Positions 25,988 to 53,834 of a stretch of DNA of 54,070 nucleotides are shown here, piece after piece. Position numbers and translations under genes: made by a program. The notes beneath the pieces are model-generated. The model searched no databases. It saw only the letters and a list, made by a program, of their open reading frames with translations, and was not told the DNA's origin. Numbering within the stretch: position 1 is the stretch's first letter; each line of letters opens with the position of its first letter. The stretch comes from a virus, in the IMG/VR virus record IMGVR_UViG_3300012964_000006, positions 1 to 54,070 of that record; one strand, 5' to 3'.

Positions 25988-27115
25988 TTACTGATCGCCC
26001 ACGGCGCACCAGTGCGCGGCTATGCCGGTGGTGCCGGCATTGTAATCTCCTCCCCAACTCGACAAGGTGAAAGATGCGGTCGTTGGATCGGTCGCGGTCA
26101 GGTAGGCCGCCGTTGCCGCAGGTTGGGTAATTTGGGTGGCAATCACGTAGGTAGTGGTGGTTAGCCCGGTTGGAGCGACCTGGGTCGTCGCCGTAAATAC
26201 GGCCGTGGTGCCGCAAACTATTTGTTGGCTGACAGATGCATACCCCAGCGGGTAAAGGTTATCCGCGCCGTATTGGAGCGTCCCGGCCAGATCGGTATTA
26301 CCGGCGCTCACGGTCAGGCCGGCCGCCAGGGTCAGCCCACCGTCTGTCCCAAAATCCGTACCGGCCGCTCCGACGTTGACCGCTGGCTGATTACTCATAT
26401 CCAAATCATCGGCCAGGGTTAACCCGCCAGTCGCGCTAAAATCCGTACCAGCCGCTCCCACATTAGAGATGGTCCCGTTTAACATATCCAGGCCACCGCC
26501 ATTGGGGAAACGGGCGACCGGAGTCGCGGCGTCTCTCACTTCCAGAATTGCGGAAACCCCGAGGCTGTCGATCACCGCCGCCGGGGTTGCCGTGGCGATT
26601 GCCGTAGGGGCAGATACCACGGCCCAGTTATTGATCGTCTGCCCGCTGGAATGAGTGCCAGCCCCGGTAGATGACCAGGCCCCACTATTGCCAACCACGA
26701 ACACCGGAGTCGCGTCATTTCTCAGGCTTAGAATCTCATTTCCGGCGCCCAGGTTATCGACGAATAAGGCCGGCGTGGCGGTTGCTACCGCCGTTGGGGC
26801 GGTAATTCCCACGGCTCCAGCGACCGGGCCGCCGCCAGAACCAAAGCCGGTGTATGTGGCGTTGCCGTCGACATCGACGTAAAAAACCGGCGTTGCCGAA
26901 CCGTTGCGGATTTCCAGGCTATTGGCGCTGCTGCTGTTTTGGATCAGTAATTGAGGGGTGGCCGTGCCGAAGGTGGATTGTGTCAGGCGAATACCGTTAA
27001 AGTCGGTAAGCCCTTCGAGTTGAGCCACGGCAGTCGGGGCCAGGGGCGAAAGCAACAGGGCCACGAATCCCAGGACCATAACCAGCCAGGGTAAAGAGTT
27101 TTTAAATCCTTTCAT
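25988..27115 (-). CDS. Repeat-containing structural protein with signal-peptide-like N-terminus
   Basis: MKGFKNSLPWLVMVLGFVALLLSPLAPTAVA; three ..R(N/D)..ATPV(F/A).. modules. Confidence 0.6.
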   Translation of the reverse strand: MKGFKNSLPWLVMVLGFVALLLSPLAPTAVAQLEGLTDFNGIRLTQSTFGTATPQLLIQNSSSANSLEIRNGSATPVFYVDVDGNATYTGFGSGGGPVAGAVGITAPTAVATATPALFVDNLGAGNEILSLRNDATPVFVVGNSGAWSSTGAGTHSSGQTINNWAVVSAPTAIATATPAAVIDSLGVSAILEVRDAATPVARFPNGGGLDMLNGTISNVGAAGTDFSATGGLTLADDLDMSNQPAVNVGAAGTDFGTDGGLTLAAGLTVSAGNTDLAGTLQYGADNLYPLGYASVSQQIVCGTTAVFTATTQVAPTGLTTTTYVIATQITQPAATAAYLTATDPTTASFTLSSWGGDYNAGTTGIAAHWCAVGDQ

Positions 27116-27147: not shown

Positions 27148-27247
27148 ATCAGTGGGCTTGGGCGGTCTAGCTAACCACCGACAAGCCGGGAACCCTGTAC
27201 CCGGCGCCCCACATATTTACAGGGCTAACTCTAACAGGGAGAGTGAA

Positions 27248-28060
27248 ATGATTAAGAATTGCCTCGTTTGTGGTACTCCATTTGAGTCCTTCCCCGCCTC
27301 CGGGCGAAAGTATTGTTCCCGCACCTGTATGGGCATCGCCAAATCCAAGCGCATTGAGCGAATTTGCCTGACCTGTGGTAAGGCGTTTTTTGCCCCACAT
27401 CAAAAGGTAGAAGCTGGATTTGGGCTTTACTGTTCCCGCGCTTGCGCTGATTACGGTTGGGATGAGCCTTGCCAGAACTGCGGCAAATTGGTGCATCGCA
27501 CACCGTTCCACTCCAGAACACAGGACCACGTTTTTTGTAGCCGCAAGTGTTATGGACAATGGAAACGCCGCCGGATTCAGGTGGCTTGCCAGAACTGCGG
27601 CAGAGTGTTTGAGGGTAAGCAATCCGACGCCGCAGATACTAGGTATTGCTGCCTGGCCTGCTATAACCAGGCCAGGGCACAGAAATTTACCATGTTGATT
27701 TGCCAGCATTGTGGTAAACCGTTTCAGCGTCCGGCGGCCTTTGTCAACCCGAATATGTACCTGGGTAAATATTGCTCCGCCGAATGTATGGGCCTTTCCC
27801 GCCGCTTGCCCGATAGCATCAGATCCGACTACGATCATCAGTTTACCGAAAGCCTTAAAGAGCAAATAAGAAATCGAGATGGCAGAAAGTGCCAGGTTTG
27901 TGGCAGAGCCGAATCTCAGCTTTCCAGAAGCCTTGATGTTCACCATATTGACTACGATAAAACTAACTGCCATCCCGATAACCTGATTTCGCTTTGTGGC
28001 CCTTGCCACTCTCGAACTAACTATAATCGCCCCCGATGGAAACAACGCTTTATGCGCTGA
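27248..28060 (+). CDS. HNH homing endonuclease with five tandem zinc-ribbon modules
   Basis: 5 x [CxxCG-x11-19-(Y/F)C(S/C)xxC], then C-terminal CQVCG..DVHHIDYD..NLISLCGPCH; ATG 27248 with GGGAGAG SD. Confidence 0.8.
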   Translation: MIKNCLVCGTPFESFPASGRKYCSRTCMGIAKSKRIERICLTCGKAFFAPHQKVEAGFGLYCSRACADYGWDEPCQNCGKLVHRTPFHSRTQDHVFCSRKCYGQWKRRRIQVACQNCGRVFEGKQSDAADTRYCCLACYNQARAQKFTMLICQHCGKPFQRPAAFVNPNMYLGKYCSAECMGLSRRLPDSIRSDYDHQFTESLKEQIRNRDGRKCQVCGRAESQLSRSLDVHHIDYDKTNCHPDNLISLCGPCHSRTNYNRPRWKQRFMR

Positions 28061-28062
28061 TG

Positions 28063-30285
28063 TTAAGCGCAGTTGGATTTGTGAAGTGGCCTAAAGTCAC
28101 TGACAGGGAGGCAATCGTAGGTGGCGCTAAACCGGAAGCTCATCAGCCGCACCTTATAGCGCAGCGTGTCGTTGGTGAACATCGCCCCGGCCGTTTCCTG
28201 GTCACTGGTAAAGAGTTGCGGTACTTGCTGGCCCCGAAGGGAGATGTCCCAAATTGCCGGCGCAACCTGTGGATCAGCCGCGAGCGCCCAGTTGTTGGTG
28301 TCGGTCCATTCGGGAACGGCGATGACATCAAACTCGTTTTGGTAGGGGTTAATGTCGTTATTGGCGCTGCCGGGCAATTTCTCGCTGTTACGCAGGGCTA
28401 CGGCCGTATTTTCCAGGTCAACCGGAACGAGCATGTACTTGGGCCGAAGCATCAGGCGAGTACCCGCGCCAAGGTATTGATCGGTTTGTTTTCGCATTGC
28501 CTCGCGGGCGGCTCCGTAGGCGGCGTAGCTCAGGGCGGCAGTTAACAGGTTAGCGTGACCGCCCGCGCCTGTGGCGGCCGTGGCATTGAACAACGCGCCG
28601 GTATCGGCTAAAACCGGACCGGCGGCGGTGTTGGTGGTAAACACGGCCGCAGCGCGGGCGCTCTTGGTGTTAAACCAGGAATTGGCCAGGCGGTTGGGGA
28701 TGGTCCGAATCACGTTCACCTTGTCACGCAACAGGGTTTCCATTGTTACCCCAACGTAGTTACCGTTTTTGATGAAATTGGCGGTTTCTTCCTCGTCAAC
28801 CCAATTCAGTTCCGTGTAGGCCGCGCCTTCGTTAACGGTTGACAGGGTGGTAAATCCGTAGGTCCGCACCAGGGTAAAATCGTCAATCGTGTCAGCCTGT
28901 TCCTGCCGGCAGATCGGCGCCCACCACTCGTTTCGCTTGCTGTAGTCGTTGGCCAGGATGATGTTGACGGTGTTTTTGACGATGCTGGTCATCCCGCTGG
29001 TACTCACGGCTTCGGCCGCGCGGGGGTCCGAGAAGTAATCGCCGCCCAGGATGTCATAGGCCCATTCGGACAGCCGGCGGTAGCCGTCGTATTGGCGGCC
29101 GGCCTTAACCCAATCCCGGTAAGCCTCGGGGACGCGCTCCTGGACATAGTCTTTGGTATTGGCTTCCAGGGCTTTAAACTCGCTGTTGCCCATTGCCATA
29201 CGCAAGAAAGCCAGCTCGAACTTGTCGCGTTCGTTCAGGCCCACGGTGATAGCCTGCCGGCCGTTCCCGGCATCTGCCACCCGGCCGCTGGTATCCTCGG
29301 CCGCCTGCGCTTCCTTGACGCGCTTGATCGCGGCGTCGAGTTCGGCGTCCTCAAAGACCTTGCCAGCAAACTGGCCCATAACGATAGCCCGGAAAGCCTC
29401 GGGCAGTTTGGCCGCGTTCAGCTTCCGCTCAAGGGCCAATTCGCACCGGGCCAGGCGGGCTTCCTGGGCTGCGGCTTGCGCGGCCTGTTCCGCCGGGTCG
29501 GGTTCGTCGGCCTCGGCTTCCATCCCGGGCATCATTTGGCCTTTACCTTTCTTGCCCTTCATTTTGTCCTTCAAAGCCGCCTCTGTTTCGGGCTCGGCTT
29601 CGGGTTCGGTCGCAACCGCTTCGGGCTGGGCGGCCGGGGCCATCTCCGCCAGTGCAGCCTTTACAGCGTTCGCCACCAATGCTTTGATTTCTTCTTCGTT
29701 CATAGTGGGTTGCTCCTGTAAAATATTGGCGGCTATCAGGCGGTTAAAACCACCCCCGGCCGCTGGCTCAGCTACTAAATCAACAGAAAGAATTTTGTTA
29801 AACCCTTCGATGGTGGGCCAGGCTTGCCCCTCTAAAATCTGTTCCTTGCCCACAATCGGAAAGGTGTCTATACTCAGGCCGATGGTGTTTAATACCCCGG
29901 CCTCGTAAGCTGCTTTAAGTTTTGCGGCTAATGCCGCTTCAACGACTTTCAACACGCCGCGCAGTTGTTTGGTTGTTTCTTCCCAGTACGGGGCGACAAT
30001 CGTCCCGATCCACTCTTTGGCGACTGACCGCATCCCCTGTTTTTGCTCAAATTCCTCTTGGGTCAGGTGGTTGTCATAGACCTTCACCCCCTCCCACATC
30101 GGCAGGGATTTTTGCAGGGCTTCGACGGCGTATAACCGGCCGTTCTTGGAGCGCACATATTCACGCCCGCTGGCCGTTACCAGGTCCGTGGCTTCCTGAG
30201 CGCCGATAATGGTTACGTCCCACTCGCGGCCCTCGCTATCCTTTTTTGTGACTTTGGCTTCGACCCAGATAGATTCATTTGCCAT
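28063..30285 (-). CDS. Major capsid protein fused to an N-terminal domain and a scaffold-like linker
   Basis: 740 aa: ~190-aa N-domain, Ala/Glu/Pro-rich and coiled segment, ~400-aa C-terminal HK97-fold-like region; no separate scaffold or protease gene seen. Confidence 0.7.
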   Translation of the reverse strand: MANESIWVEAKVTKKDSEGREWDVTIIGAQEATDLVTASGREYVRSKNGRLYAVEALQKSLPMWEGVKVYDNHLTQEEFEQKQGMRSVAKEWIGTIVAPYWEETTKQLRGVLKVVEAALAAKLKAAYEAGVLNTIGLSIDTFPIVGKEQILEGQAWPTIEGFNKILSVDLVAEPAAGGGFNRLIAANILQEQPTMNEEEIKALVANAVKAALAEMAPAAQPEAVATEPEAEPETEAALKDKMKGKKGKGQMMPGMEAEADEPDPAEQAAQAAAQEARLARCELALERKLNAAKLPEAFRAIVMGQFAGKVFEDAELDAAIKRVKEAQAAEDTSGRVADAGNGRQAITVGLNERDKFELAFLRMAMGNSEFKALEANTKDYVQERVPEAYRDWVKAGRQYDGYRRLSEWAYDILGGDYFSDPRAAEAVSTSGMTSIVKNTVNIILANDYSKRNEWWAPICRQEQADTIDDFTLVRTYGFTTLSTVNEGAAYTELNWVDEEETANFIKNGNYVGVTMETLLRDKVNVIRTIPNRLANSWFNTKSARAAAVFTTNTAAGPVLADTGALFNATAATGAGGHANLLTAALSYAAYGAAREAMRKQTDQYLGAGTRLMLRPKYMLVPVDLENTAVALRNSEKLPGSANNDINPYQNEFDVIAVPEWTDTNNWALAADPQVAPAIWDISLRGQQVPQLFTSDQETAGAMFTNDTLRYKVRLMSFRFSATYDCLPVSDFRPLHKSNCA

Positions 30286-30621: not shown

Positions 30622-30650
30622 ATTATAGCCGAGATTGCGGCTTATGTCAA
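30622..30650 (-). promoter_or_regulatory. Perfect consensus promoter TTGACA-17-TATAAT
   Basis: Minus strand: TTGACA = 30645-30650, TATAAT = 30622-30627; -35 overlaps the stop of 30647..30880. Confidence 0.7.
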
Positions 30651-32107: not shown

Positions 32108-32338
32108 ATGACAGCAACTATCTTCATCCTTGGCAAAAAGGCCACAATTACCGATTACGAATGGCGCGCCGACAATCCGGCGGTTGCCAATTTGTTAAAC
32201 TCGCTACTTGACCCGGCCGGCCCCTCTGGTGCCGATCCTAACCCGGATTTAACCACGGCCCAGGAAATCGCCATTAGATTCAACGGCGAGGTACTGGACT
32301 TCGAGCCGGTGAAATCGGAAACGGGCATCGTTTATTAA
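32108..32338 (+). CDS. Hypothetical 76-aa protein, convergent with the MuF gene end
   Basis: ORF 32075..32338 trimmed to ATG 32108; its stop overlaps the MuF stop. Confidence 0.5.
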   Translation: MTATIFILGKKATITDYEWRADNPAVANLLNSLLDPAGPSGADPNPDLTTAQEIAIRFNGEVLDFEPVKSETGIVY

Positions 32339-35106
32339 AATCCCCTCAAAAGCCCAAAAATAAAGTCAAAGTAGTCTGGATCGGCTTTGGCAAATGCCGC
32401 CGGGTCTGCCCACATATTTTCCATCCCCATTGATATAATTTCAGTGGCGTACCGTTGCCCCGTAGCCTTATTTAGATATTCCTTGCCCATATACGAACTG
32501 GTAAACTTGTCCCGGCGCGCAACCTCGTGTTTTTCGTAGCTACCCCCTAACCATTCCAGGGTTTCGCCCTTTGTTCGCCGGTCGTAAAACTCCAGGGCTT
32601 TTTGATGGACTCTTGGGTCCATATCTTCTAACCAATGTCCCAATTCGTGAATAGCCGTTCTTTGCCCGTCCCCCTTGCCAAGTACGACGCTGCCATTAAG
32701 GTCATAAAACGCACGGCCCTTACCCCTCGGCTTAATACCAACCGTCCTGCCATCAATGGTCCCTGTGCCAACCATCTTGGAAAATTCCTCGGCTCCGTCC
32801 TTGTACGCGGCCCGCCTGGTCTTATCAAATGTCCCCTCGAATTTTGTTTTTATCTGAGCGGGTTTTTTGACATAGAGAACTTCACGCTGACGAGACAGCA
32901 AACCCTGTTTTATTTCTGTAAGTTGGTTTACTAATGATGAGTGATGTATAACCTTCGCGTCAATGTCGCGGCTCATTTGCCTATATAATTCCCGGTCTGC
33001 GTCTGTCCAATTGGGATAATTATCGTAGAAGTTTCGCTTCTTTTCCCACATAGAATTTAATTCATCATCGGCCGTACTTATTTGCGCCCTCAGGCCCTTA
33101 ATTTCTTTGTCAAGTTTGTCCGGTATCGTTTCAAGTATTTGACTTCTGGCCCGTTGTCCCACATTAGCCAGTGCTTTCATTTGCTGGATCTTTAGTTGCT
33201 GCGCGCGCCTTTCTTCCTTTTCGCCCTGTGCCCTATCCCGCCGCATCTTTTCGTTGACGACTTTTTTATCTAGCGGCGTCTCGACTGCGCCTATGGCCGG
33301 GTGTATTGTCACCATCGAACAACGACAATTCTTGACAATAAACGTATTGCTGATGTATAATTGTTCTATAGTTTGGAGGTCAAAAACGTGTCCAGAAAAA
33401 TCGAAATTCCTAACCTTGATGATTTGATTATTCGATATAAATCCGGCGAATCTATTAAAGAATTGTCGCGCCAAATTGGTATAGGTGGTGGGCCTCTCTG
33501 CCGACGATTTGCTCAGGCTGGTGTGAAAATTAGACACCCCAAGCGCGTCGACGTACCCAACCTCGGCGTCATTGTAGCCAGGTATGCCGCCGGTGAACCG
33601 GAACAAAGACTCGCCAAAGAATACGGTATAACCCGTACTATTCTGCGTCGTCGGTTGATTGAGGCCGGGGTGCCCATTCGTGGCATTAGTGAAGCCAACA
33701 CGATTCGGATGCAAAATATGTCTCCCGGGAATCGCCTGGTTTTGACCGAAGCCGCCCACTCTGCCGTAAGGGGTAAAAAGCGCACCGAGGCCGAACTTAT
33801 CAAGCGGGCCATAACCCGTCAGGAAACCTTGCAGTATGTTACCCCGGCTGAATTGATTTTGATCGAAATGCTCGGGGAGCGCGGTATCATTCTTACTCCG
33901 CAAAAAGCCTACGGCCGGTACAATATCGATATTGCCCTTGATGAATTTCCCGTCGCCGTGGAAGTAATGGGGCATAACGGCGCTTACCGCTTGAAAACCC
34001 TCTCTGGCTACAACCGAAAGAGAACCCCATATCTCCTCGATTCTGGTTGGCACGTGGTCATTGTCCGGGTCGACGGTACGCGCTATTTCATTACCCCGGC
34101 TGCTGCCGATTACATAGTCGCCTTCACGCAAGAACTTGGCCGCAACAAACCCCCTACTAGTCAATATCGGGTGATTGGGGGTAACGGTGAGTTGTTTACC
34201 GCTGTCTATGGTTAGCTCGATGGCTGGTCCATCATAAAAGGACCGAGCCGCCGCAACCAAGCCAGGGGCGATAACACTATTGCCTGGCAAAATACAGTTG
34301 ACGGTTTCTTGCGCTCCCCCGGCCGGATCGCCCGGCTGCATCAAAAACGAGCCGCCCACCTGAAACGGCTGGCTCACCGGAATAGGTGCAAAGAAATACC
34401 GGCTATGGGCTATCAGGTGACTTCGACGCGTTCTCCTGTCTGCCGCCGCTAACCATCGCTTTTGTAGTTCTGGTATCGCTTTTGCTGTCTCCGCCTGTTG
34501 GCTTGCCGCCGCCAGGTTGTAAACGCGGGTCATCTCTGTCCGGGCGATAGCCTCGGACCTGGCGGCAACGCCCGTGACAATCTCCGGCCTGCGCCTGATT
34601 CCCCACGCGCCCGCCCGGGCCTCCGTGCCGAGTATGTCCGTTATGGCTTTCATCGTGTCCAATGGGCTGCGCTGTCCCAGCGTGGCCAGCCTCAGTTGTA
34701 CGTCAATCTGGCCCCGCATCGTGTCGCTGACATTACGGATAAGCGCGGCGCTGTAATCAAACGAGGCGTTCAGTTGCGCCGGGTTGATGACGTTAAACGC
34801 CCCTCCAAGGTCTGCCTGTATGATCGGGTCCACCACGGAGTCGCCGCCAAGTCGCGCCGCCTGGTTAAATGATTGCCGCAGATTGGCGTCAAGCCGGGCC
34901 TGGTACTCGTCAATCATCCGGTTTATGCTCGTCTGCATCTCGCCCATTCGCCAGGCGGCAAATTCGGACGTGGCAACCTGTCCGGCGATTTGATTCCGCA
35001 AATCCTGGAGGGCCGAGATAAGCGCCTTCACGGTGTCATCTTCCAGGGAGACATACCGGCGAATGACCGAATCAAGCGCGGTTTTATACTTCTGCTTTGG
35101 GGTCAT
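32335..35106 (-). CDS. Head morphogenesis / minor capsid protein (Mu F / SPP1 gp7-like) interrupted by an intein, with a C-terminal HExxH domain
   Basis: MuF-like N-domain ending ..ETVN | intein | CRCSMV (N-CRC motif); position after portal; HELGH at 32635-32649. Confidence 0.75.
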   Translation of the reverse strand: MTPKQKYKTALDSVIRRYVSLEDDTVKALISALQDLRNQIAGQVATSEFAAWRMGEMQTSINRMIDEYQARLDANLRQSFNQAARLGGDSVVDPIIQADLGGAFNVINPAQLNASFDYSAALIRNVSDTMRGQIDVQLRLATLGQRSPLDTMKAITDILGTEARAGAWGIRRRPEIVTGVAARSEAIARTEMTRVYNLAAASQQAETAKAIPELQKRWLAAADRRTRRSHLIAHSRYFFAPIPVSQPFQVGGSFLMQPGDPAGGAQETVNCILPGNSVIAPGLVAAARSFYDGPAIELTIDSGKQLTVTPNHPILTSRGFVAAKFLREGDYVIGSSRGNEIARTVDPDNDHVPTRIEEIWGSLSVVAREGFQAVSAVMPHYFHGDGKFIKGNIDIVPAVGFLRSKNDTALPEHFDQNQFSRGNILQGFLTGYGPLDKFGLGALFTPYGRVGGFGQNQAIPGRHILHPNRVGFTNATNGHPGLNQPTTQNSTGYTVFFGESLFRFTGGIPGYNDAEVGYVDALGVSNFHTSLSKSSAERPTTYTNLARQFFNRFAGFISNNQIIKVRNFDFSGHVFDLQTIEQLYISNTFIVKNCRCSMVTIHPAIGAVETPLDKKVVNEKMRRDRAQGEKEERRAQQLKIQQMKALANVGQRARSQILETIPDKLDKEIKGLRAQISTADDELNSMWEKKRNFYDNYPNWTDADRELYRQMSRDIDAKVIHHSSLVNQLTEIKQGLLSRQREVLYVKKPAQIKTKFEGTFDKTRRAAYKDGAEEFSKMVGTGTIDGRTVGIKPRGKGRAFYDLNGSVVLGKGDGQRTAIHELGHWLEDMDPRVHQKALEFYDRRTKGETLEWLGGSYEKHEVARRDKFTSSYMGKEYLNKATGQRYATEIISMGMENMWADPAAFAKADPDYFDFIFGLLRGF
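33332..33361 (+). promoter_or_regulatory. Promoter TTGACA-18-TATAAT for the antisense endonuclease gene
   Basis: TTGACA 33332-33337 (overlaps intein codons VKN), TATAAT 33356-33361, GGAGG 33375-33379. Confidence 0.6.
33388..34215 (+). CDS. HTH-repeat plus Vsr/DUF559-type PD-(D/E)XK endonuclease (homing endonuclease candidate), antisense within the intein
   Basis: GTG 33388 after GGAGG; repeats IIRYKSGESIKELSRQIG / IVARYAAGEPEQRLAKEYG; nuclease core GRYNIDIALDEFPVAVEVMGH..GWHVVIV. Confidence 0.65.
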   Translation: MSRKIEIPNLDDLIIRYKSGESIKELSRQIGIGGGPLCRRFAQAGVKIRHPKRVDVPNLGVIVARYAAGEPEQRLAKEYGITRTILRRRLIEAGVPIRGISEANTIRMQNMSPGNRLVLTEAAHSAVRGKKRTEAELIKRAITRQETLQYVTPAELILIEMLGERGIILTPQKAYGRYNIDIALDEFPVAVEVMGHNGAYRLKTLSGYNRKRTPYLLDSGWHVVIVRVDGTRYFITPAAADYIVAFTQELGRNKPPTSQYRVIGGNGELFTAVYG

Positions 35107-35136: not shown

Positions 35137-35289
35137 TTAAATGCGCACTAAGCTGGGTCGTAACCAGCCAATGGGCCGATAAAAAACTAACCCGCTGCTA
35201 CATACCTCTGTGACAATACCCAAATGATCATCGTAACGCTCGTGGACTCGGATCATATCACCTGGCTTAATTGGGTCGCTGTGTTCCAT
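35137..35289 (-). CDS. Hypothetical small protein (50 aa)
   Basis: ORF 35137..35358 trimmed to ATG 35289 (MEHSDPIK) after the portal stop. Confidence 0.45.
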   Translation of the reverse strand: MEHSDPIKPGDMIRVHERYDDHLGIVTEVCSSGLVFYRPIGWLRPSLVRI

Positions 35290-36877
35290 TTCTCCCTTGC
35301 CTTTCTGGCTGTAATTCGTCCTCCGCCGGCTCATCCTCTGCCGGCATATCTTCCTCATCCCCCGCCATAAGATTCATTGGCGACGGCTCCGGTTCCTCGG
35401 GTTTTTCTTCCTCTGCCTTTTCTAACTCCTCTCTTACGTCGATTTCAACGCCAAACTCCGCCGCCACTTTGGCCCAAATCTGAGCCGCTTTCTCGTGGCT
35501 GACCCAGCCGGTTTGTTCTGCAACCGTCAACGCGCTGGTGAGTTGGGTCAGGGCCGTGGCGTTTTTGCTGGTGTCCTTGCTGGTCATCTCGGGAGCGACA
35601 ACCTCAATTTCCCCGGCCTCATCGTCACCACTCCACGCGCCGGCAATTACAGCCTGGTCACGCTGGAAATTGAGCATCATTGTTAGCATCTCAGTGACGT
35701 ATGATTGCCGGTCCTCCAGCGACTTCCAAGACGGGTCGCCCTGCTCTGCCGCTGTCGCCCGGTTGGCTGCGTCACCATTGGCATACCAATGCTCGGGGAT
35801 GCCCAGGCCGCCGAGGATGAAAGTTAACTGGGTGCGAACCACGGCAATGGATTCGGTTTGTCGCAAATCAGGCTTTTTCAGTTCCCAAATCTCTTTTTCA
35901 TTGTGGGCGTTGACCGCGCCCTTTTTCGGCGGCATTGCCCGGATTTCATTGGTCCGTTTAATCACTTCCTGTGGACTAATTCCTTCGAGCGTTACGTCCC
36001 AGGAGAAATACCCGGCAAACTGCTCCTTTTCGCCAATCTCGAAAAGGGTCATATCTAACTGATCAAGCCAGTCCAACACCTGCAGCAGGTCCGAAAAGCC
36101 GCGCGATTGATTGCTAACATTGTTTACCTGAAACAGAAAGCACGAGCCGGTATACTGTTGCAATCCCAACCCGGCAAGCCACACTTGCTCCCACGGCTCA
36201 AGCGTTGCCTGTTCTGCCAGGACAAGCCGGCCGACATTCTCCGCGTCAACCACGCGCCCATCCTGTACGACCGGTTCTTGTTCCCGAATGACCCGGTAAA
36301 CCATTTCCCGCGTAGCCCCCTGCCCCTTTTTCAGCACAACGGCCCATTTCTCCATTGCATTGTCAGGGTGACATTTGATCTCCAGTATCTGGCCTGGGTC
36401 GATGTAGCCAAGACGGGTCAAGCCATCGGCCCGGCGCACAAACGCCGGGTAAACCTGCTCACCCCACAAGCCAAGCTGCAGGACGAATTGCTTAATACGA
36501 TGCTTTAGCCGGTTGACCTCCCAAAAGGAGTCCAATATTTCCCGCAGGCCGTCATCCTCTACCTCGTAGGTAATACCACGGCCCACCACGTAAGCAACCA
36601 TCAGGGCCAGGACGCGCTTGGCCACCGGGTTGGATTGGTACACGCTCCAAACGGCTTCGATGATTTTATCATAGCTCAGCTTGGAGAAATCCCGCAGCAT
36701 ACGACCGGCGACCCTGTAACCCTGGCCACCCGGTTTGAATTGGCTTGTGCCCGGGTCGTCGTTGCCGTCCTGATAGCCGGCATAATAGGCTGATTGCCTG
36801 GCCTCGGTTAGTCGGGCGTTAAAGTCGTCTTTTGTGACCAGGCCAAGAGCCTCGTAAATTCTATCTGTGATTCCCAT
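35267..36877 (-). CDS. Portal protein
   Basis: 536 aa directly after the large terminase; acidic C-terminal tail. Confidence 0.8.
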   Translation of the reverse strand: MGITDRIYEALGLVTKDDFNARLTEARQSAYYAGYQDGNDDPGTSQFKPGGQGYRVAGRMLRDFSKLSYDKIIEAVWSVYQSNPVAKRVLALMVAYVVGRGITYEVEDDGLREILDSFWEVNRLKHRIKQFVLQLGLWGEQVYPAFVRRADGLTRLGYIDPGQILEIKCHPDNAMEKWAVVLKKGQGATREMVYRVIREQEPVVQDGRVVDAENVGRLVLAEQATLEPWEQVWLAGLGLQQYTGSCFLFQVNNVSNQSRGFSDLLQVLDWLDQLDMTLFEIGEKEQFAGYFSWDVTLEGISPQEVIKRTNEIRAMPPKKGAVNAHNEKEIWELKKPDLRQTESIAVVRTQLTFILGGLGIPEHWYANGDAANRATAAEQGDPSWKSLEDRQSYVTEMLTMMLNFQRDQAVIAGAWSGDDEAGEIEVVAPEMTSKDTSKNATALTQLTSALTVAEQTGWVSHEKAAQIWAKVAAEFGVEIDVREELEKAEEEKPEEPEPSPMNLMAGDEEDMPAEDEPAEDELQPERQGRNGTQRPN

Positions 36878-38456
36878 CGAATACGCTCCTTCGCTGGCTC
36901 CGGTAGGTGTCCAGCGGAATGTCGGTGATTGCGCCGGCGGGTGGAGGACCGCCGCCGGGAAGATGAGCCATCATAAGGGCCTCGCCCACGTCGGGGCTGC
37001 GCCCAATCCGTTTTTTAATCTCGTCCTTTTCTTCGATCTGGACAACGCCGCCGGCCAGCATCCTATATTTTGCCGCGCACAAATCCGCAACGATTTCGTT
37101 ACCCGGCGGTAGGGCCAGGTTGTCGCCGTGAACGGGATCAAGCGCCACCCGCATCCGCCAATAATATTCGGCCCGGGTATTTTTCATCCTCAATACGACG
37201 TCGCCGGTTTCCGTCTTTATCTCGTAATCGGACCCGGCCGCCGCGTTGACCGGGTGAACCTTGCCGGGCCACATTACCTTCATACTGTCGTAGGGTGACG
37301 AGCCAATACCGGCCGCGTCTATGTTGATATAGCCTATATGCGGCTCGTCTTTCAGCACGTCGTAAAACACGCCGGCCGCCGCTGGACCGTCCTCAATATT
37401 CACGCCTGGCACTTTTTTCACCTCGTCAAACCACCAGCCATAACGTTTAGCCAGGGCAAGGAAATCTTTACCGCCCCTGGCCATATCGCCCCCAACGCCC
37501 GACAAGGGGATACCGGGCTTCTCCGCTTCCATCCATCGCCGTTGTGCTGCTCGTACCCATTCGGTTGGGATAACCTGCCAGGGGTCGGTTGATTTACCGG
37601 CCGTAAAATCGCCGTCAAGCAATTGGCTTCTAAGTGGCTCAGGAAGCGATTGCAGGACTGACAAATATTGATTGTCACTCGATAGGTAGATGTTGTCTTG
37701 GAGTTTTGCGGGGATGAATGTTCGGCTGCGCGGGTAGATTGTCCGGCCGTTGACTTCGACGGGAGCGCCGCTTTTGAGCCATACAACCCTGTCGCCGTCA
37801 TAATAATACCATCGCAGTTCGCCGGGTTTTGCCGGGTCGGAGTGGTTAGGATCAAGCCAGGGCGCCCATTCTTCGACAATCCAACTGCCGGCCTCGTCCG
37901 TGGGAGGGTTGCAGGTACACACGACCCGGCAACGCTGGCCCCTGACCGTGGTCCGATTCCAGCCGATGATAAACAGGTATTGTGTCCTGGTAAATTCCGT
38001 GATTTCATCGAAAGCCTTTAAATCACCCGCCCGCCCTTGCCAGTTTTTCTTGTTTTCCTCGTATTGGACCGCGCCAAATTCGATAACCCGATTGCCGACC
38101 CGCCAAACCTTTTCAACCTTGTTATAGTTCTTTTCGTCCCCAATGATCTCGACGCTCCGGTCTATTAGCCCGCGTAAGTTTGGGTAGACCCGGCGGAATA
38201 TCTGTGAGCGTCGATGCTGGGTCAGGGCCAGGCCAAGAATTAAATCAGATTTGCCCCCGCCGGCCTGCCCACCATAAAGCAATTCATCAGCCGGGCTTTC
38301 AAGGGCCTGCGTCTGTGGGCCGGGTTGGGGTTGCCAAATCGTCCGGCTCGTCACCTGCGAGGGCTTCAAGAAGTCGAATTGCTTTATCGGCAATGACCCC
38401 GTGTAGTACCGCAACTTCCGAGGCGGGTTGTTTGTGTAGCCATTCCTCATCAGCAA
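36861..38456 (-). CDS. terL: Terminase large subunit
   Basis: PQPGPQ..LLYGGQAGGGKSD Walker A, nuclease C-domain; maximal ORF overlaps terS by 158 nt, so the true start is uncertain (ATG 38450 or GTG 38354). Confidence 0.85.
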   Translation of the reverse strand: MLMRNGYTNNPPRKLRYYTGSLPIKQFDFLKPSQVTSRTIWQPQPGPQTQALESPADELLYGGQAGGGKSDLILGLALTQHRRSQIFRRVYPNLRGLIDRSVEIIGDEKNYNKVEKVWRVGNRVIEFGAVQYEENKKNWQGRAGDLKAFDEITEFTRTQYLFIIGWNRTTVRGQRCRVVCTCNPPTDEAGSWIVEEWAPWLDPNHSDPAKPGELRWYYYDGDRVVWLKSGAPVEVNGRTIYPRSRTFIPAKLQDNIYLSSDNQYLSVLQSLPEPLRSQLLDGDFTAGKSTDPWQVIPTEWVRAAQRRWMEAEKPGIPLSGVGGDMARGGKDFLALAKRYGWWFDEVKKVPGVNIEDGPAAAGVFYDVLKDEPHIGYINIDAAGIGSSPYDSMKVMWPGKVHPVNAAAGSDYEIKTETGDVVLRMKNTRAEYYWRMRVALDPVHGDNLALPPGNEIVADLCAAKYRMLAGGVVQIEEKDEIKKRIGRSPDVGEALMMAHLPGGGPPPAGAITDIPLDTYRSQRRSVFDGNHR

Positions 38457-43557: not shown

Positions 43558-43586
43558 TTGACAACTGACTATATATCGGATATAAT
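43558..43586 (+). promoter_or_regulatory. Perfect consensus promoter TTGACA-17-TATAAT (rightward)
   Basis: TTGACA 43558-43563, TATAAT 43581-43586, 45 nt upstream of ATG 43632. Confidence 0.7.
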
Positions 43587-50341: not shown

Positions 50342-50664
50342 AACCCCGCCCTCACCAGGTCGTCAACCGACTCGGCCACAATCGCAATCCCGCCGGCCGC
50401 TTCGACCGCTGCCAGGAAGGCCGCTTGAAGGTCACTCACCTGCCCACGTCGGCCGGGGCGTTTGCACTCTACCGCATAGAACGTTCCCCGGTTGGTGCAG
50501 CCGATAATATCAGAGCTGCCCGGTACATCCGTAAAGCGAAAGAATCGCCGCTTGCCCTGGTACTCATTCACCTGGGCGCCGTTGTTGATGCGAATGGCGA
50601 TGTGACCGCGTAGCCTTAAGTAGTCTAAACAGGATCGCTTGACATCGTTCTCTGATGCGCTCAT
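50338..50664 (-). CDS. VRR-NUC domain nuclease
   Basis: CLDYLRLRG..GSSDIIGC..FYAVECKRPG..Q..F pattern. Confidence 0.75.
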   Translation of the reverse strand: MSASENDVKRSCLDYLRLRGHIAIRINNGAQVNEYQGKRRFFRFTDVPGSSDIIGCTNRGTFYAVECKRPGRRGQVSDLQAAFLAAVEAAGGIAIVAESVDDLVRAGL

Positions 50665-52922
50665 TATGCCGCCTCTCCAAATAGGGAGTATTGCCCCTCG
50701 GTTGCCATCGTTTTTAGTGCGACCTCTGCCGTTTTGCCCTCTGCCCGGGGAAGGGCATTGACCGCCAGGTAGACCGGGTTAAGGTCCAACCCCACAAATC
50801 GCCGGCCCAGGTTGCGGGCGACCTCGCCGGCCGTACCGCTGCCACAAAAAGGATCAAGGGCGATTGCCGGGACGGTTGGGGCTGTTTTGTTTCCGGCGAC
50901 TCGGGTTGTCCACAGGTACGGCTTGATTTCATCGGCCGCCAGGACAAATACCGCCCGGTGCAATTCGGGAATATCTTTGTTCTCCGCCACTGCCGCCAGT
51001 TTGTCATACCGCTTCTGAATCAGGTCTTGCCGGCGGCGCTTGGTTGGGTTGGCGGTACGGTAGCAGGTACAGGATGGTTGCCAGCCGGTGGTAATGGGCT
51101 GCTTATATCCCGGCATTGTTCCACCAGGGCCGCCCCTCGCTCCGTGCTCCAAATCGTGTTGCCTGTCGGTACTTCGCCAATCGCCAACCCTTGCGGTTTC
51201 CACCACCCTCACCCACCCGGCCCCGCACTTCGGGCAGCACCCCCGCGCACTCGTACCAGCCAAAACGCACGGCTCCACGAGCTTTGTGGGGAAGGTGGCA
51301 AAGTGGGCGCCCGGGTACGCTTCGGTGGCAATGGTCCAAATTGTGCGGCGATTGCGATGCCCACTAAAGACTTTTATCCCCGGTGTATTGCTTTCGTTAC
51401 CAGGTCGCCCAGCTCCGTTAGTCTCTTTTTTGCCAACGTGAAACGCGCTGTTGTATCGGCCGGCGTATTGCGGATCCGCGCTTTCCCTTACCGCCTCTGC
51501 ATCATAAAAATACCGTTCCTGCTTCGTCATCAGAAACACGTACTCGTGCGCTTTCGTCGGCCGATCGTCAACCGATTCGGGCATTGGATTCGGTTTTGCC
51601 CAAATAATCGTTGATCGGCAAATCCAGCCATCTTCCATCAAGGCCCGCTTGACCAGATCGGGTATACCTAATTCCTGTTTCGCCCTGGTTGCGTTTGACA
51701 ATCGTTTGGCTTTGTCGTATAATTCAGCATAACGAACAAGACTACCGAATTGATTGGAGATAAACAAATGTCTTACGGAATTGACAGTAATCTTGATAGC
51801 CCCATCCATCAAAGAGAGCGCGAAATGCTCAGGGGTGGCTTTAGTTATGCGGAAATTGCGCAAGCCCTGGGGAGTAAACACAAGAGCATTGCTGAGCGTA
51901 ACAGGTTGGTCTATAAGATCGACGTCCGCCAGGCTTTTGCTGACAGAATCAGGCGCGACGGTGTCCCTTGCCGGCTGGAAGTCTCCGACAGCTTTGGTTA
52001 CTGGTTTAGTGGATTCTTCGACGGCGAGGGGCATATTGGAATTTATAGCAGGCAAAGGGCAGATAGGTACATCGAGCGAAGATTGTCCATTCAAATTATC
52101 ATCCGAGACGACGACGCTGATGTTATTCATTCCATCAGGGATAATCTGAAGGTCGGTATTGTTTATGACAATGGCGGACACGGAAGAACTAACCCTAACA
52201 CTACTTTCAGGGTTGAGCAGATTAACGACCTGGCAGAAATCATTGTCCCTTTGTTTGAAAAGTATCCGCTTCACACTAAGAAAGCGCGTGAATTCGCCAT
52301 CTGGAAGGACATTGTTGGGCTTCAATACACCGTCACTATGGGCGGATATAGTCAACGCGCATCGGCCTCCGATGAACATAACGCCATTTTTGATAATGCC
52401 CTCAAGTTGATTAGCGATATTCGCACCTACCGACGATGACGGCTTATCCCTGAAAGTCCGGTCATCATTGCCGGCCGCTTTCGTTGCCGCCGCGCTTCGG
52501 CCGTTTGGGGCGGTGGCATAGGAATCCCCAATGTTAAGCCAGAGCGTTGCCTCGGGCCGCAGCACTCGCCACACTTCACGAAAGATATTGACAATGTGCT
52601 GGATAAATAAGCCGGGTGTTGGTTCCAGGCCCAGGGAGCCGCGCCAGGCGTGGCAGTGGATACAGAATTGACCAGAATCAGCGGTTTGTCCGATAGCGGC
52701 AGCGGCGTTATGTTTGGCCCCGGTGTTAGTTTGCGGCACTTGATTGGGGTGATGAGCCAGTCCAAGTTGCCCCCACTCGTGCTGGCAATCTTCCCGCCCG
52801 TCCCAAATCATAGGCGTAATTCCGTAGTCCCTTAAGCCCCACTAATAAGGCGGACTAGTCACTACACAGTGTACTGACTCGTCCGCCAAAGGGATGCGAA
52901 AGCTATTAGCGTGAACAATCAT
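50664..52922 (-). CDS. DNA methyltransferase (beta-class N4/N6) carrying an in-frame TAG and a ~250-codon in-frame insertion
   Basis: ATG 52922 with AAGGAGG SD: MIVHANSFRIPLADESVHCVVTSPPY-TAG-WGLRDYG..GLEPTP..LNIGDSY..[insert]..IIWAKPNPMPESVDDRPTKAHEYVFLMTK..HFATFP..DPFCGSGT. Confidence 0.7.
51695..51723 (+). promoter_or_regulatory. Perfect consensus promoter TTGACA-17-TATAAT for the LAGLIDADG gene
   Basis: TTGACA 51695-51700, TATAAT 51718-51723, GGAG 51756-51759. Confidence 0.65.
51768..52439 (+). CDS. LAGLIDADG homing endonuclease (single-motif) with N-terminal HTH
   Basis: GYWFSGFFDGEGHIGI (LAGLIDADG motif); ATG 51768. Confidence 0.8.
   Translation: MSYGIDSNLDSPIHQREREMLRGGFSYAEIAQALGSKHKSIAERNRLVYKIDVRQAFADRIRRDGVPCRLEVSDSFGYWFSGFFDGEGHIGIYSRQRADRYIERRLSIQIIIRDDDADVIHSIRDNLKVGIVYDNGGHGRTNPNTTFRVEQINDLAEIIVPLFEKYPLHTKKAREFAIWKDIVGLQYTVTMGGYSQRASASDEHNAIFDNALKLISDIRTYRR
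52842..52844 (-). other. In-frame TAG codon inside the methyltransferase
   Basis: Minus strand ..TCC? no: ..AGT CCG CCT TAT TAG TGG GGC TTA AGG GAC TAC GGA = S P P Y * W G L R D Y G. Confidence 0.85.
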
Positions 52923-53496
52923 CCCGCCCTCCTTTCTGCTCAGATTCCTTGATAAAGTCTCTGTTGATATTCTTGGTACTGTGGACCCAGTTGTGGCAGT
53001 CCGGGCAAAGCAAAATGAGGTTGTCTACATCGGCCCTTAGTTCCTTCACCTGAAAAGATACAATGTGGTGAATGTGGAATCGGTCCCTATTTCTGGCTAT
53101 AGCCCCACACCGCCGACAAATACCCCTGTCGCGTCGCCACACGGACAAGGCGGCCTTTTTCCATTCCCTGGAAGCGTAAAAACCTTGTCTTTCGGCGGTT
53201 ATGCCACCCTTCCAGTTTGGTACTTCTGCCCCCCTGCGCCCGTACATTGGGTTCTTTTTTCCATTGGCCCCCCAATGCTTAACGGCCCTGGTTTCTGATA
53301 TAGTACGGGTTGGTATTTGGTGCTTTTGGAGAAAATAGAGGATATTGTTTTCGATGCAGCCAAAATCATCCGCGATGTCTTTGGCTGACCTTTGCTTTAT
53401 AACATATTCGTTGTAGAGCCATTCCCGATTCCAGTAAGGCTTTTCTGTTCGCCAGTGTTCGCCCTTAACGAATCTACCTGTGATTTTGTCCGGCAT
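52906..53496 (-). CDS. HNH homing endonuclease
   Basis: CRRCG..FHIHHIV..NLILLCPDCHNWVH; start at ATG 53496 (MPDKITG) downstream of its own promoter and leader; maximal ORF runs to 53700. Confidence 0.75.
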   Translation of the reverse strand: MPDKITGRFVKGEHWRTEKPYWNREWLYNEYVIKQRSAKDIADDFGCIENNILYFLQKHQIPTRTISETRAVKHWGANGKKNPMYGRRGAEVPNWKGGITAERQGFYASREWKKAALSVWRRDRGICRRCGAIARNRDRFHIHHIVSFQVKELRADVDNLILLCPDCHNWVHSTKNINRDFIKESEQKGGRDDCSR

Positions 53497-53655
53497 AGCA
53501 AAACGCCCCTTACCAAGTTTGCCATCGTTGCCTAGACGAATGGCGGGACGTGAATCCACCTGATAAGGGGCGCTTTGCCCACAATGAGTATTGTGTTTTT
53601 CGATGGCGTCTAAAAAAGCAAAACGCCCCGTGGTCCATTCGTCTAGGCACTTACC

Positions 53656-53684
53656 AGTATAACACAGTTCGGCCGGAATTGCAA
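53656..53684 (-). promoter_or_regulatory. Promoter TTGCAA-17-TGtTATACT for the HNH gene
   Basis: Minus strand: TTGCAA = 53679-53684, TATACT = 53656-53661; -10 and leader are homologous to the 3268-3296 promoter. Confidence 0.5.
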
Positions 53685-53696
53685 TACCCTGTACTA

Positions 53697-53834
53697 TCAT
53701 CTCCTAATCCCCCTCCACCCTCTCGCCCCGTTCAGCCTCCTGACCTCTTTTGAATACTGCCGGTAGCGGCAGATGCAATTTATCGCCACCCACAGGGCAG
53801 CGATTACAGCGATGGTATAGGCGGTGTCGCTCAT
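53697..53834 (-). CDS. Small membrane peptide (45 aa)
   Basis: Hand translation MSDTAYTIAVIAALWVAINCICRYRQYSKEVRRLNGARGWRGIRR; ATGA overlaps at both ends. Confidence 0.4.
   Translation of the reverse strand: MSDTAYTIAVIAALWVAINCICRYRQYSKEVRRLNGARGWRGIRR

Follow-up and report, generated by a model that had tools for sequence, protein, structure and literature searches.

Inteins that carry an endonuclease gene on their opposite strand have been described in actinophages. Gosselin, Arsenault and Gogarten (bioRxiv 10.1101/2025.01.02.630785) reported contiguous inteins with antisense VSR-like and antisense LAGLIDADG endonucleases, and the entries for Malisha, Vivi2, Angelicage, Affeca, Fosterous and others in their Supplemental Table 1 read 'minor capsid, MuF-like, class 1, VSR -1 ORF' (ORF, open reading frame). 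In the same study, the insertion site in the Vivi2 cluster reads HEVIN|CRCTM, and most VSR-type MuF inteins were found to be vertically inherited. The preprint cites earlier antisense LAGLIDADG inteins (Gorbalenya 1998; Gogarten 2002) and names as antisense LAGLIDADG cases Synechocystis DnaX, a Chloroflexus SpoVR-like gene and actinophage minor capsid inteins. Here, we analysed 54,070 nucleotides of viral DNA (IMG/VR record IMGVR_UViG_3300012964_000006, positions 1 to 54,070; hereafter the window), in which a MuF-type minor capsid gene very probably carries a class-1 intein with an antisense, in-register, Vsr-like homing endonuclease (HEN), together forming one two-strand mobile element. An earlier interpretation made from the letters alone (the sequence-only reading) had regarded contiguous inteins with an antisense-encoded endonuclease as without precedent; this did not hold, as the 2025 preprint describes such inteins.

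Vsr-like endonucleases are also known from fractured genes, where a free-standing endonuclease gene lies between split-intein halves (Dassa et al. 2009, PMC2677866, with no mention of antisense cases). For I-Bth0305I, an EDxHD motif comprising Glu170, Asp196, His213 and Asp222 has been defined, with His213 as the proposed general base (Taylor et al. 2011, PMC3239194). Literature searches combining intein, antisense and Vsr, or aimed at MuF-type inteins, returned nothing specific. In a tblastn search, the window HEN matched Gordonia phages at 38-39% identity, with E = 4e-36 to 6e-30, and the matches lay opposite to the strand on which MuF is annotated. These are the same Gordonia phage records as in the preprint table, indicating that the window element is a homologous member of the described family. 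Indeed, it has the MuF / IPR006528-type host protein, the (V/I)N|CRC site and the antisense homologous HEN of that family.

The MuF gene, its intein and the antisense endonuclease

The host gene is a 923-residue ORF on the minus strand (32335..35106; Pfam Phage_Mu_F and Intein_splicing), which encodes the precursor of a MuF / SPP1 gp7-type minor capsid (head morphogenesis) protein, intein included. It sits downstream of two large ORFs (36861-38450 and 35267-36877), and in related phages the MuF slot comes after terminase and portal. On the minus strand, the precursor comprises a 270-residue N-extein ending in ...GGAQETVN (34297..35106), a 323-residue class-1 intein running from Cys1 to Asn323 (33328..34296), and a C-extein of 330 residues plus stop that starts with CRCSMVTIHP (32335..33327) and provides the +1 Cys. 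The Cys1 codon occupies 34294-34296 and the terminal Asn codon 33328-33330. Block A (residues 1-12) maps to 34261-34296, block B (TVTPNHPILT) to 34159-34188, a GDYVIG stretch of the N-lobe to 34105-34122, block F (SGHVFDLQT) to 33370-33396 and block G (NTFIVKN) to 33328-33348, with Lys as the penultimate residue.

Comparison of ten lineages showed that C1, T39, N41, H42 and N323 are invariant and that the +1 residue is always Cys; the intein thus has the Cys1, the block B T-x-x-H (T39-P-N41-H42) and the C-terminal Asn followed by Cys of class 1. Pfam Intein_splicing (PF14890) matched ORF residues 286-593, corresponding to intein residues 17-323 (E = 3e-8). A profile built from ten inteins matched 21 solved inteins or intein-like domains in the PDB at E < 0.01, including 2JMZ (1e-9, with both N-lobe and C-lobe aligned), the PI-MtuI mini-inteins (about 2e-8), Pho RadA, DnaB and others, placing the element in the HINT fold on sequence. 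By frame-specific BLOSUM scores and codon-position variability, the N-terminal HINT lobe spans 34117..34296 (minus), where the intein frame is the conserved frame. The C-terminal lobe with blocks F and G spans 33328..33410 (minus), likewise with a conserved intein frame and with an alignment to solved inteins at profile positions 283-317. Between them lies an open sense-frame linker (33412..34114, minus), which is rich in G, F, N and T and unconserved as protein; Pfam found no domain, and specifically no endonuclease domain, within it.

The insertion point is exact. Intein-free homologs (P0014, P0015, P0016, P0019, P0021 and P0022) run uninterrupted through ...E(T/V)VNCRC(S/V/T)M..., with some variation as E(T/V)(V/F)NCRC across P0014, P0015, P0019 and P0022, and their alignment with the window gives the junction ETVN | 323 residues | CRCSM. 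In-silico splicing yielded the junction peptide ...GGAQETVN-CRCSMVTIHPAIGAVETPLDK and the junction DNA ...GAAACCGTCAAC|TGTCGTTGTTCGATG..., and the Phage_Mu_F match grew from profile positions 30-88 (30 bits) to positions 30-111 of 112 (40 bits), so that removal of the intein restores the host MuF protein in both alignment and Pfam comparison. A DNA-level search of the MuF gene against phage records gave no match. Taken together, these comparisons support a contiguous class-1 intein in the MuF-type ORF, for which splicing is predicted. The sequence-only reading had proposed the class-1 hallmarks at these positions, the penultimate Lys, the splitting of the N-CRC motif and a sense linker free of endonuclease motifs, all of which agree with the Pfam and alignment results.

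On the plus strand, an ORF extends from an upstream TTG over 284 codons (33361-34215) or, from the GTG at 33388 to a TAG stop, over 275 residues (33388..34215, plus) in codon register with the intein frame. Pfam analysis of its product revealed HTH_58, HTH_7 and a sub-threshold match to the restriction-endonuclease-like MTES_1575. The ORF has 12 full-length homologs of 31-54% identity, and a profile search returned 1,681 clusters (at 50% identity) with E <= 1e-30. An AlphaFold 2 model based on 13 sequences (mean pLDDT 86.5) shows an alpha/beta core joined by a helical connector to two three-helix modules. The modules are two helix-turn-helix (HTH) DNA-binding units (residues 10-43 and 59-92; 33415..33663, plus), supported by Pfam and the modelled helices, and this N-terminal half matched Cbp1 (2LVS), a Pax paired domain and Hin/resolvase HTH in Foldseek and PDB profile searches. 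The core is a Vsr/DUF559-like PD-(D/E)XK nuclease domain (residues 153-264; 33844..34179, plus) according to MTES_1575, PDB profile and Foldseek. Its best folds in Foldseek were E. coli Vsr (1VSR, 1CW0), the catalytic domain of I-Bth0305I (3R3P) and 3HRL, with a probability of 1.0 for 1VSR, 1CW0 and 3R3P, and the HEN profile matched 3R3P at 2e-4 and also 3HRL. D181 (YNIDIA) and E192 (AVEV) are invariant in the homolog alignment. The HEN is not a member of the Vsr mismatch endonuclease family (PF03852), which is characterised by a sequence signature, a zinc site and residues that intercalate at the T:G mismatch: Pfam gave no match to it, the best nuclease match being the sub-threshold MTES_1575, and the resemblance to that enzyme lies at the level of the fold only.

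These results bear out the sequence-only reading of a 275-residue product with HTH modules and a Vsr/DUF559-type core. Its further claim, that the 3' end of the gene is antisense to blocks A and B, holds for block B: the HEN ORF overlaps intein residues 28-303 and consequently lies opposite block B and the remainder of the N-lobe, leaving block A outside the overlap. At its other end, it is also antisense to the first three residues of block F.

Constraint and expression signals on the two strands

The MuF and HEN ORFs use the same triplets and are thus in exact codon register, so that TTA, CTA or TCA in one frame reads as a stop in the other, and as long as the intein frame has to stay open, the endonuclease gene must avoid these three codons. 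Indeed, the plus ORF contains none of them, as the sequence-only reading had noted for all 275 codons. Given its 25 Leu and 11 Ser residues and the synonymous codon usage of the other genes in the window, the probability of this absence is P = 9e-4. Across lineages, about 3,000 HEN codons likewise include no TTA, CTA or TCA, and the product of the per-lineage stop-avoidance probabilities for eight lineages is about 1e-26, a value that is only approximate because the lineages share ancestry.

Openness alone, however, is weak evidence. The window, at 54% GC, contains two other antisense in-register open frames, 28843-29721 (plus, 292 codons) inside the capsid gene and 50718-51614 (plus, 298 codons) inside the C-terminal half of a methylase gene, both without detectable homology or Pfam match and probably chance mirror ORFs. 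Because frames of similar length occur without homology, we dropped a binomial ORF-length null as the main argument and replaced it by the null conditioned on Leu and Ser content together with comparative evidence. For the HEN, homology and comparative data are decisive, not ORF length.

To follow each frame, we scored BLOSUM conservation per bin for both frames in a codon-threaded alignment of ten lineages. In the zone of blocks F and G (33328-33410), the minus frame scored 1.5-2.1 and the plus frame 0.0-1.1. Over the linker and endonuclease body (33412-34114), the minus frame stayed at about 0 in most bins, rising to up to 1.9 under the nuclease core motifs (33901-34069), and the plus frame scored 0.2-3.4. 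In the zone of blocks A and B (34117-34296), the minus frame scored 0.5-3.3 and was highest over block B (1.7-3.3 in the two block B bins, 34117-34204; 0.5-1.3 in the two bins beyond), with -0.4 to 1.4 for the plus frame. Nucleotide identity at plus codon positions 1/2/3 was 0.44/0.56/0.34 in the middle zone, 0.42/0.59/0.52 in the C-lobe and 0.35/0.58/0.49 in the N-lobe. On these alignments, the HEN frame is free to vary at its third position in the middle zone, and in both lobes the intein frame is free at its own third position, which is plus position 1. The dual-strand constraint anticipated by the sequence-only reading is hence partitioned, with the intein frame conserved at the ends and the HEN frame in the middle, and the plus frame is, by this signature, under purifying selection across the family.

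The expression signals of the HEN gene lie within the codons of the splicing domain. A perfect sigma-70-type promoter, TTGACA-N18-TATAAT (33332..33361, plus), is antisense to the block G codons, with the -35 box opposite the V-K codons of ...IVKN and the -10 box opposite L-Y codons. A Shine-Dalgarno sequence, GGAGG (33375..33379, plus), 8 nt before the GTG at 33388, is the reverse complement of the D-L-Q codons of block F. The start codon, ATG or GTG, is the reverse complement of the His codon in G-H-V-Y-D-L-Q, CAC giving GTG in the window. Promoter, GGAGG and start had all been located correctly by the sequence-only reading. The promoter is one of four perfect sites in 54 kb, and shuffled sequences contained none. 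Besides the promoters of the two antisense endonuclease genes of this phage (the second is described below), the perfect sites comprise TTGACA-N17-TATAAT at 30622-30650 (minus), upstream of the capsid gene block, and at 43558-43586 (plus).

The signals recur in other lineages. The HEN start aligns with an ATG in nine other lineages and lies exactly 60 nt from the terminal Asn codon in seven of ten; TTGGAG(G/A)-N8-ATG, most often as TTGGAGGTCATAAAC-ATG, is likewise found in seven of ten, and promoter-like sites matching 10-12 of 12 positions occur in four other lineages. In L009 and L013, Pro replaces the His and E replaces Q, and the HEN starts 69 and 75 nt from the Asn codon. The penultimate intein residue is Lys in the window and in L006, and H, S or R in other lineages. 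Both lineages with Lys have perfect 12/12 promoters, and those with H or S match 10-11 of 12; the unusual Lys in the window coincides with a perfect -35 box. The sequence relationships are seen directly; from them we infer that selection by the HEN gene may act on residues of the splicing domain. We tentatively regard the intein and its antisense HEN gene as a co-evolved bidirectional unit and not a recent lodger in a mini-intein, a proposition to which we give slightly less than even weight. If true, the HEN expression signals would shape splicing-domain residues.

The two-strand arrangement was found at the same site in 12 lineages (the window, L001, L002, L006, L008-L013, L017 and L018): in every homolog with readable DNA, the HEN is antisense and in register, and the MuF-type ORF around it has its intein at this one position. 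The metagenomic loci covered were L001, L002-L005, L006/L007, L012 and L013. Cultured carriers are Gordonia phage Fosterous, Idiomarinaceae phage 1N2-2, Aggregatibacter phage Aaphi23, Klebsiella phage KpTDp1, Pseudomonas phage BR313c and Vibrio phage PvVp04, extending the family beyond actinophages to phages of Proteobacteria and many metagenomic lineages. A looser motif proxy, a mirror of block B near the HEN C-terminus, classed 131 of 157 sequences as intein-embedded and was judged too loose to rely on.

Gene calls never contain both products. Over the element, only the HEN was called in metagenomic loci that extend past it, public annotations of the cultured phages show one continuous MuF gene and no HEN, and on the window's own contig only the MuF ORF was called. 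The dual-strand arrangement explains why callers annotate MuF or endonuclease, never both. As callers miss the spanning MuF-intein ORF in L001-L007 and L013, such inteins are under-counted in protein databases. In L013 (logan SRR30224741_730338), where the MuF-intein ORF was missed, spurious GC-rich ORFs were called besides the HEN.

Proposed mechanism and alternative explanations

From the two ORFs, their domain identities, the exact insertion point, the conserved arrangement and the constraint by frame, we infer that the intein splices, that the plus ORF is transcribed and translated, that its product has a cleavage specificity and that the element is still mobile. On the minus strand, translation of the MuF-type gene would proceed straight through the 323-residue intein. 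The HINT lobes (about residues 1-60 and 296-323 by conservation) would then fold together and excise the insert with its roughly 230-residue meaningless linker, joining ...ETVN to CRCSM... and restoring the conserved MuF motif. On the plus strand beneath the linker, what we take to be a real gene, complete with promoter, ribosome-binding site and GTG start, would give an HTH-HTH-Vsr-like endonuclease. In co-infecting phages, this enzyme is predicted to cut MuF alleles that lack the intein, close to where N-CRC is encoded, and repair by recombination could then copy intein and endonuclease gene together (homing).

Several observations weigh against this interpretation, which is supported on computational grounds. 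Both key Pfam matches fall short of their curated cut-offs (Intein_splicing with 34.0 bits at a cut-off of 35.8, MTES_1575 with 20 bits at 38.2), and the usual, though not obligatory, penultimate His of the intein is replaced by Lys. A single-sequence AlphaFold 2 model of the intein reached a pLDDT of 28.7 and lends no structural support to the HINT fold or to disorder of the linker. The nearest intein-free homolog found, P0014, is only 47% identical, which leaves any recent mobility conjectural. Finally, the window HEN lacks equivalents of His213 and Asp222 of I-Bth0305I, which makes its catalytic competence uncertain: the His213 region reads AVEVMGHNGAY in the window and AVEVFGGGWH in relatives, of which about half carry the GGxWH motif, and the variable Asp222 position is Asn. 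With the Glu and Asp present and these two residues absent, the HEN has an EDxHD-type fold yet is not a canonical member of that group, and its activity is not assured.

The last two points favour the alternative that survives best, namely that the same anatomy is a fixed, vertically inherited passenger, in which the intein splices and the HEN is dead or re-purposed as a DNA-binding protein, so that no homing occurs. The closest HEN relative, P0001, also lacks the GGxWH His and an Asp222 equivalent, no close intein-free MuF allele was found, and vertical inheritance of most VSR-type MuF inteins (10.1101/2025.01.02.630785) fits this scenario. In contrast, D181 and E192 are invariant, ORF, promoter and Shine-Dalgarno sequence are intact, and purifying selection acts on the plus frame across the family, where variability peaks at the third codon position. 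A dead gene would be expected neither to keep 275 codons open nor to maintain a perfect promoter. We consider the passenger scenario unlikely, though it deserves more weight than the others.

A fractured gene, with a split intein, trans-spliced MuF halves and a free-standing endonuclease gene between them on the other strand, would match the setting in which Vsr-like endonucleases were first found. It is very improbable here, since the sense frame is stop-free across the HEN gene in 12 lineages, an openness for which a split arrangement would not select, and cultured-phage annotation shows a single continuous MuF gene; a start codon or ribosome-binding site for a separate C-terminal half is not required. 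Equally improbable is that the insert does not splice and is tolerated in frame as a loop, which has been proposed for the ShiLan domain. The same phage does carry an intein-free in-frame insertion in its methylase gene (see below), and the MuF insert has no penultimate His; however, the MuF insert breaks the conserved N-CRC motif and not a variable loop, its splice-junction and block B residues are invariant, its HINT lobes are under sense-frame selection, and its profile matches solved inteins. That the plus ORF is a chance mirror ORF, as might arise easily when only three sense codons give stops and as the two homology-free frames of 290-300 codons in the window illustrate, is refuted to near certainty by full-length homologs, a confident fold with Vsr-type and HTH matches, the plus-frame codon-position signature and the conserved promoter, Shine-Dalgarno sequence and start.

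On the homing-element interpretation, about 830 bp are read on both strands, the two frames are constrained in different segments, and three sense codons are unavailable to one of the genes, a tight packing of two selfish functions. The family could serve as a compact model for overlapping-gene constraint and as a source of Vsr-type site-specific nucleases and of inteins that tolerate a roughly 230-residue arbitrary linker.

Further endonuclease genes in the window and comparison with known systems

A second antisense endonuclease gene lies in an N6/N4 methylase gene (50664-52922, minus), which reads through it. This LAGLIDADG gene (51768-52439, plus; Pfam 6e-17) is antisense and in register inside the methylase and has its own perfect promoter (51695-51723, plus). 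Its Shine-Dalgarno-plus-start sequence is TTGGAGATAAACAA-ATG, with the ATG again being the reverse complement of a sense His codon. Compared to an insert-free homolog, the methylase is longer by about 245 residues, which fall in a variable loop flanked by GDSY and KQELGIP. Intein blocks are not visible in this insertion, and Pfam analysis of nine such proteins gave methyltransferase families only. Rfam had no match over the whole window, indicating that none of its endonuclease loci contains a recognised intron. Among related loci (L016, L019-L024 and L026-L030), 11 of the 12 relatives with 39-63% identical LAGLIDADG genes have these genes antisense and in register within open frames; the frames are 273-727 codons long, and at least nine contain methylase motifs. 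More distant LAGLIDADG relatives lack such a frame in nine of ten cases, and in the tenth, L035, the in-register frame is just 185 codons long. Within the LAGLIDADG body, the plus frame is the conserved frame, and no forbidden codon occurs in nine lineages. Use of the antisense, in-register strategy twice in one phage suggests a general way for homing endonuclease genes to hide in coding sequence.

The methylase frame itself carries an in-frame TAG (52842-52844, minus) between ...VVTSPPY and WGLRDYG.... Homologs read SPPYWGLR or SPPYYGLR and lack this codon, which cuts off the catalytic SPPY motif from the remainder of the gene. A pseudogene lesion, a read-through site and a sequence error are all conceivable explanations; TAG is the ordinary stop of 6 of the 30 other genes in the window. 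Directly upstream of the methylase start, with a 17-nt overlap, is a free-standing HNH endonuclease gene (52906-53700, minus; Pfam HNH 9.5e-12), and together with the LAGLIDADG gene the methylase region thus carries two different homing-type endonuclease genes.

Near the capsid gene, a weak HNH-like ORF of 270 residues (27248-28060, plus; Pfam E = 6e-4) is likewise free of TTA, CTA and TCA (P about 0.006). The minus strand opposite it holds an open frame of 307 codons (27167-28090) that is in phase with the downstream gene 25988-27115, with two stops between them. This ORF is possibly a third antisense endonuclease element, decayed or differently organised, between the capsid gene and the next gene.

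Among known systems, the closest to the methylase element is the ShiLan domain (2025, PMC11855218), which is inserted in frame into phage methylases, does not splice and conceals an out-of-frame HNH gene on the same strand. In both, an endonuclease gene occupies another frame of the insertion and the host gene reads through without stops. By this analogy, the methylase element looks like an antisense-LAGLIDADG variant of a ShiLan-type insertion, the hidden ORF being on the same strand in ShiLan and antisense here. The MuF element differs from ShiLan in its bona fide splicing domain.

With fractured genes, the MuF element has in common an intein-associated Vsr-like endonuclease that is encoded by a gene of its own and has an N-terminal DNA-binding region. 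There, however, the intein is split and the host gene lies in two ORFs, whereas the window intein is contiguous and its sense frame open. The HEN shares with I-Bth0305I (3R3P) the nuclease fold (Foldseek probability 1.0, TM 0.63 on target; profile E = 2e-4), the bipartite layout of DNA-binding and nuclease parts, and equivalents of Glu170 (TPAE), Asp196 (YNIDIA) and an extra conserved Glu. I-Bth0305I is reported to carry NUMOD motifs and belongs to a group I intron, in contrast to the HTH_7/HTH_58-type modules and the intein of the window HEN. Antisense LAGLIDADG inteins differ in endonuclease family, LAGLIDADG instead of Vsr-like PD-(D/E)XK, and in the older cases also in host gene.

The closest known counterparts remain the Gordonia MuF inteins, which share with the window the host protein family, the intein class, the -1 antisense register and the site (HEVIN|CRCTM compared to ETVN|CRCSM), and whose HENs likewise combine a helical N-terminal half with a C-terminal half that contains the Vsr core. 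In contrast to these actinophages, the window phage has 54% GC and E. coli-type promoter and Shine-Dalgarno signals, the TTGGAGG-N8-ATG and TTGACA/TATAAT signals being absent from the Gordonia elements, and its penultimate intein residue is Lys where Fosterous has Arg. Relative to the searchable text of the preprint by Gosselin and colleagues, the present analysis adds that Proteobacteria also have phages with this family, that constraint is divided between the two frames zone by zone, and that the expression signals are the antisense of blocks F and G.

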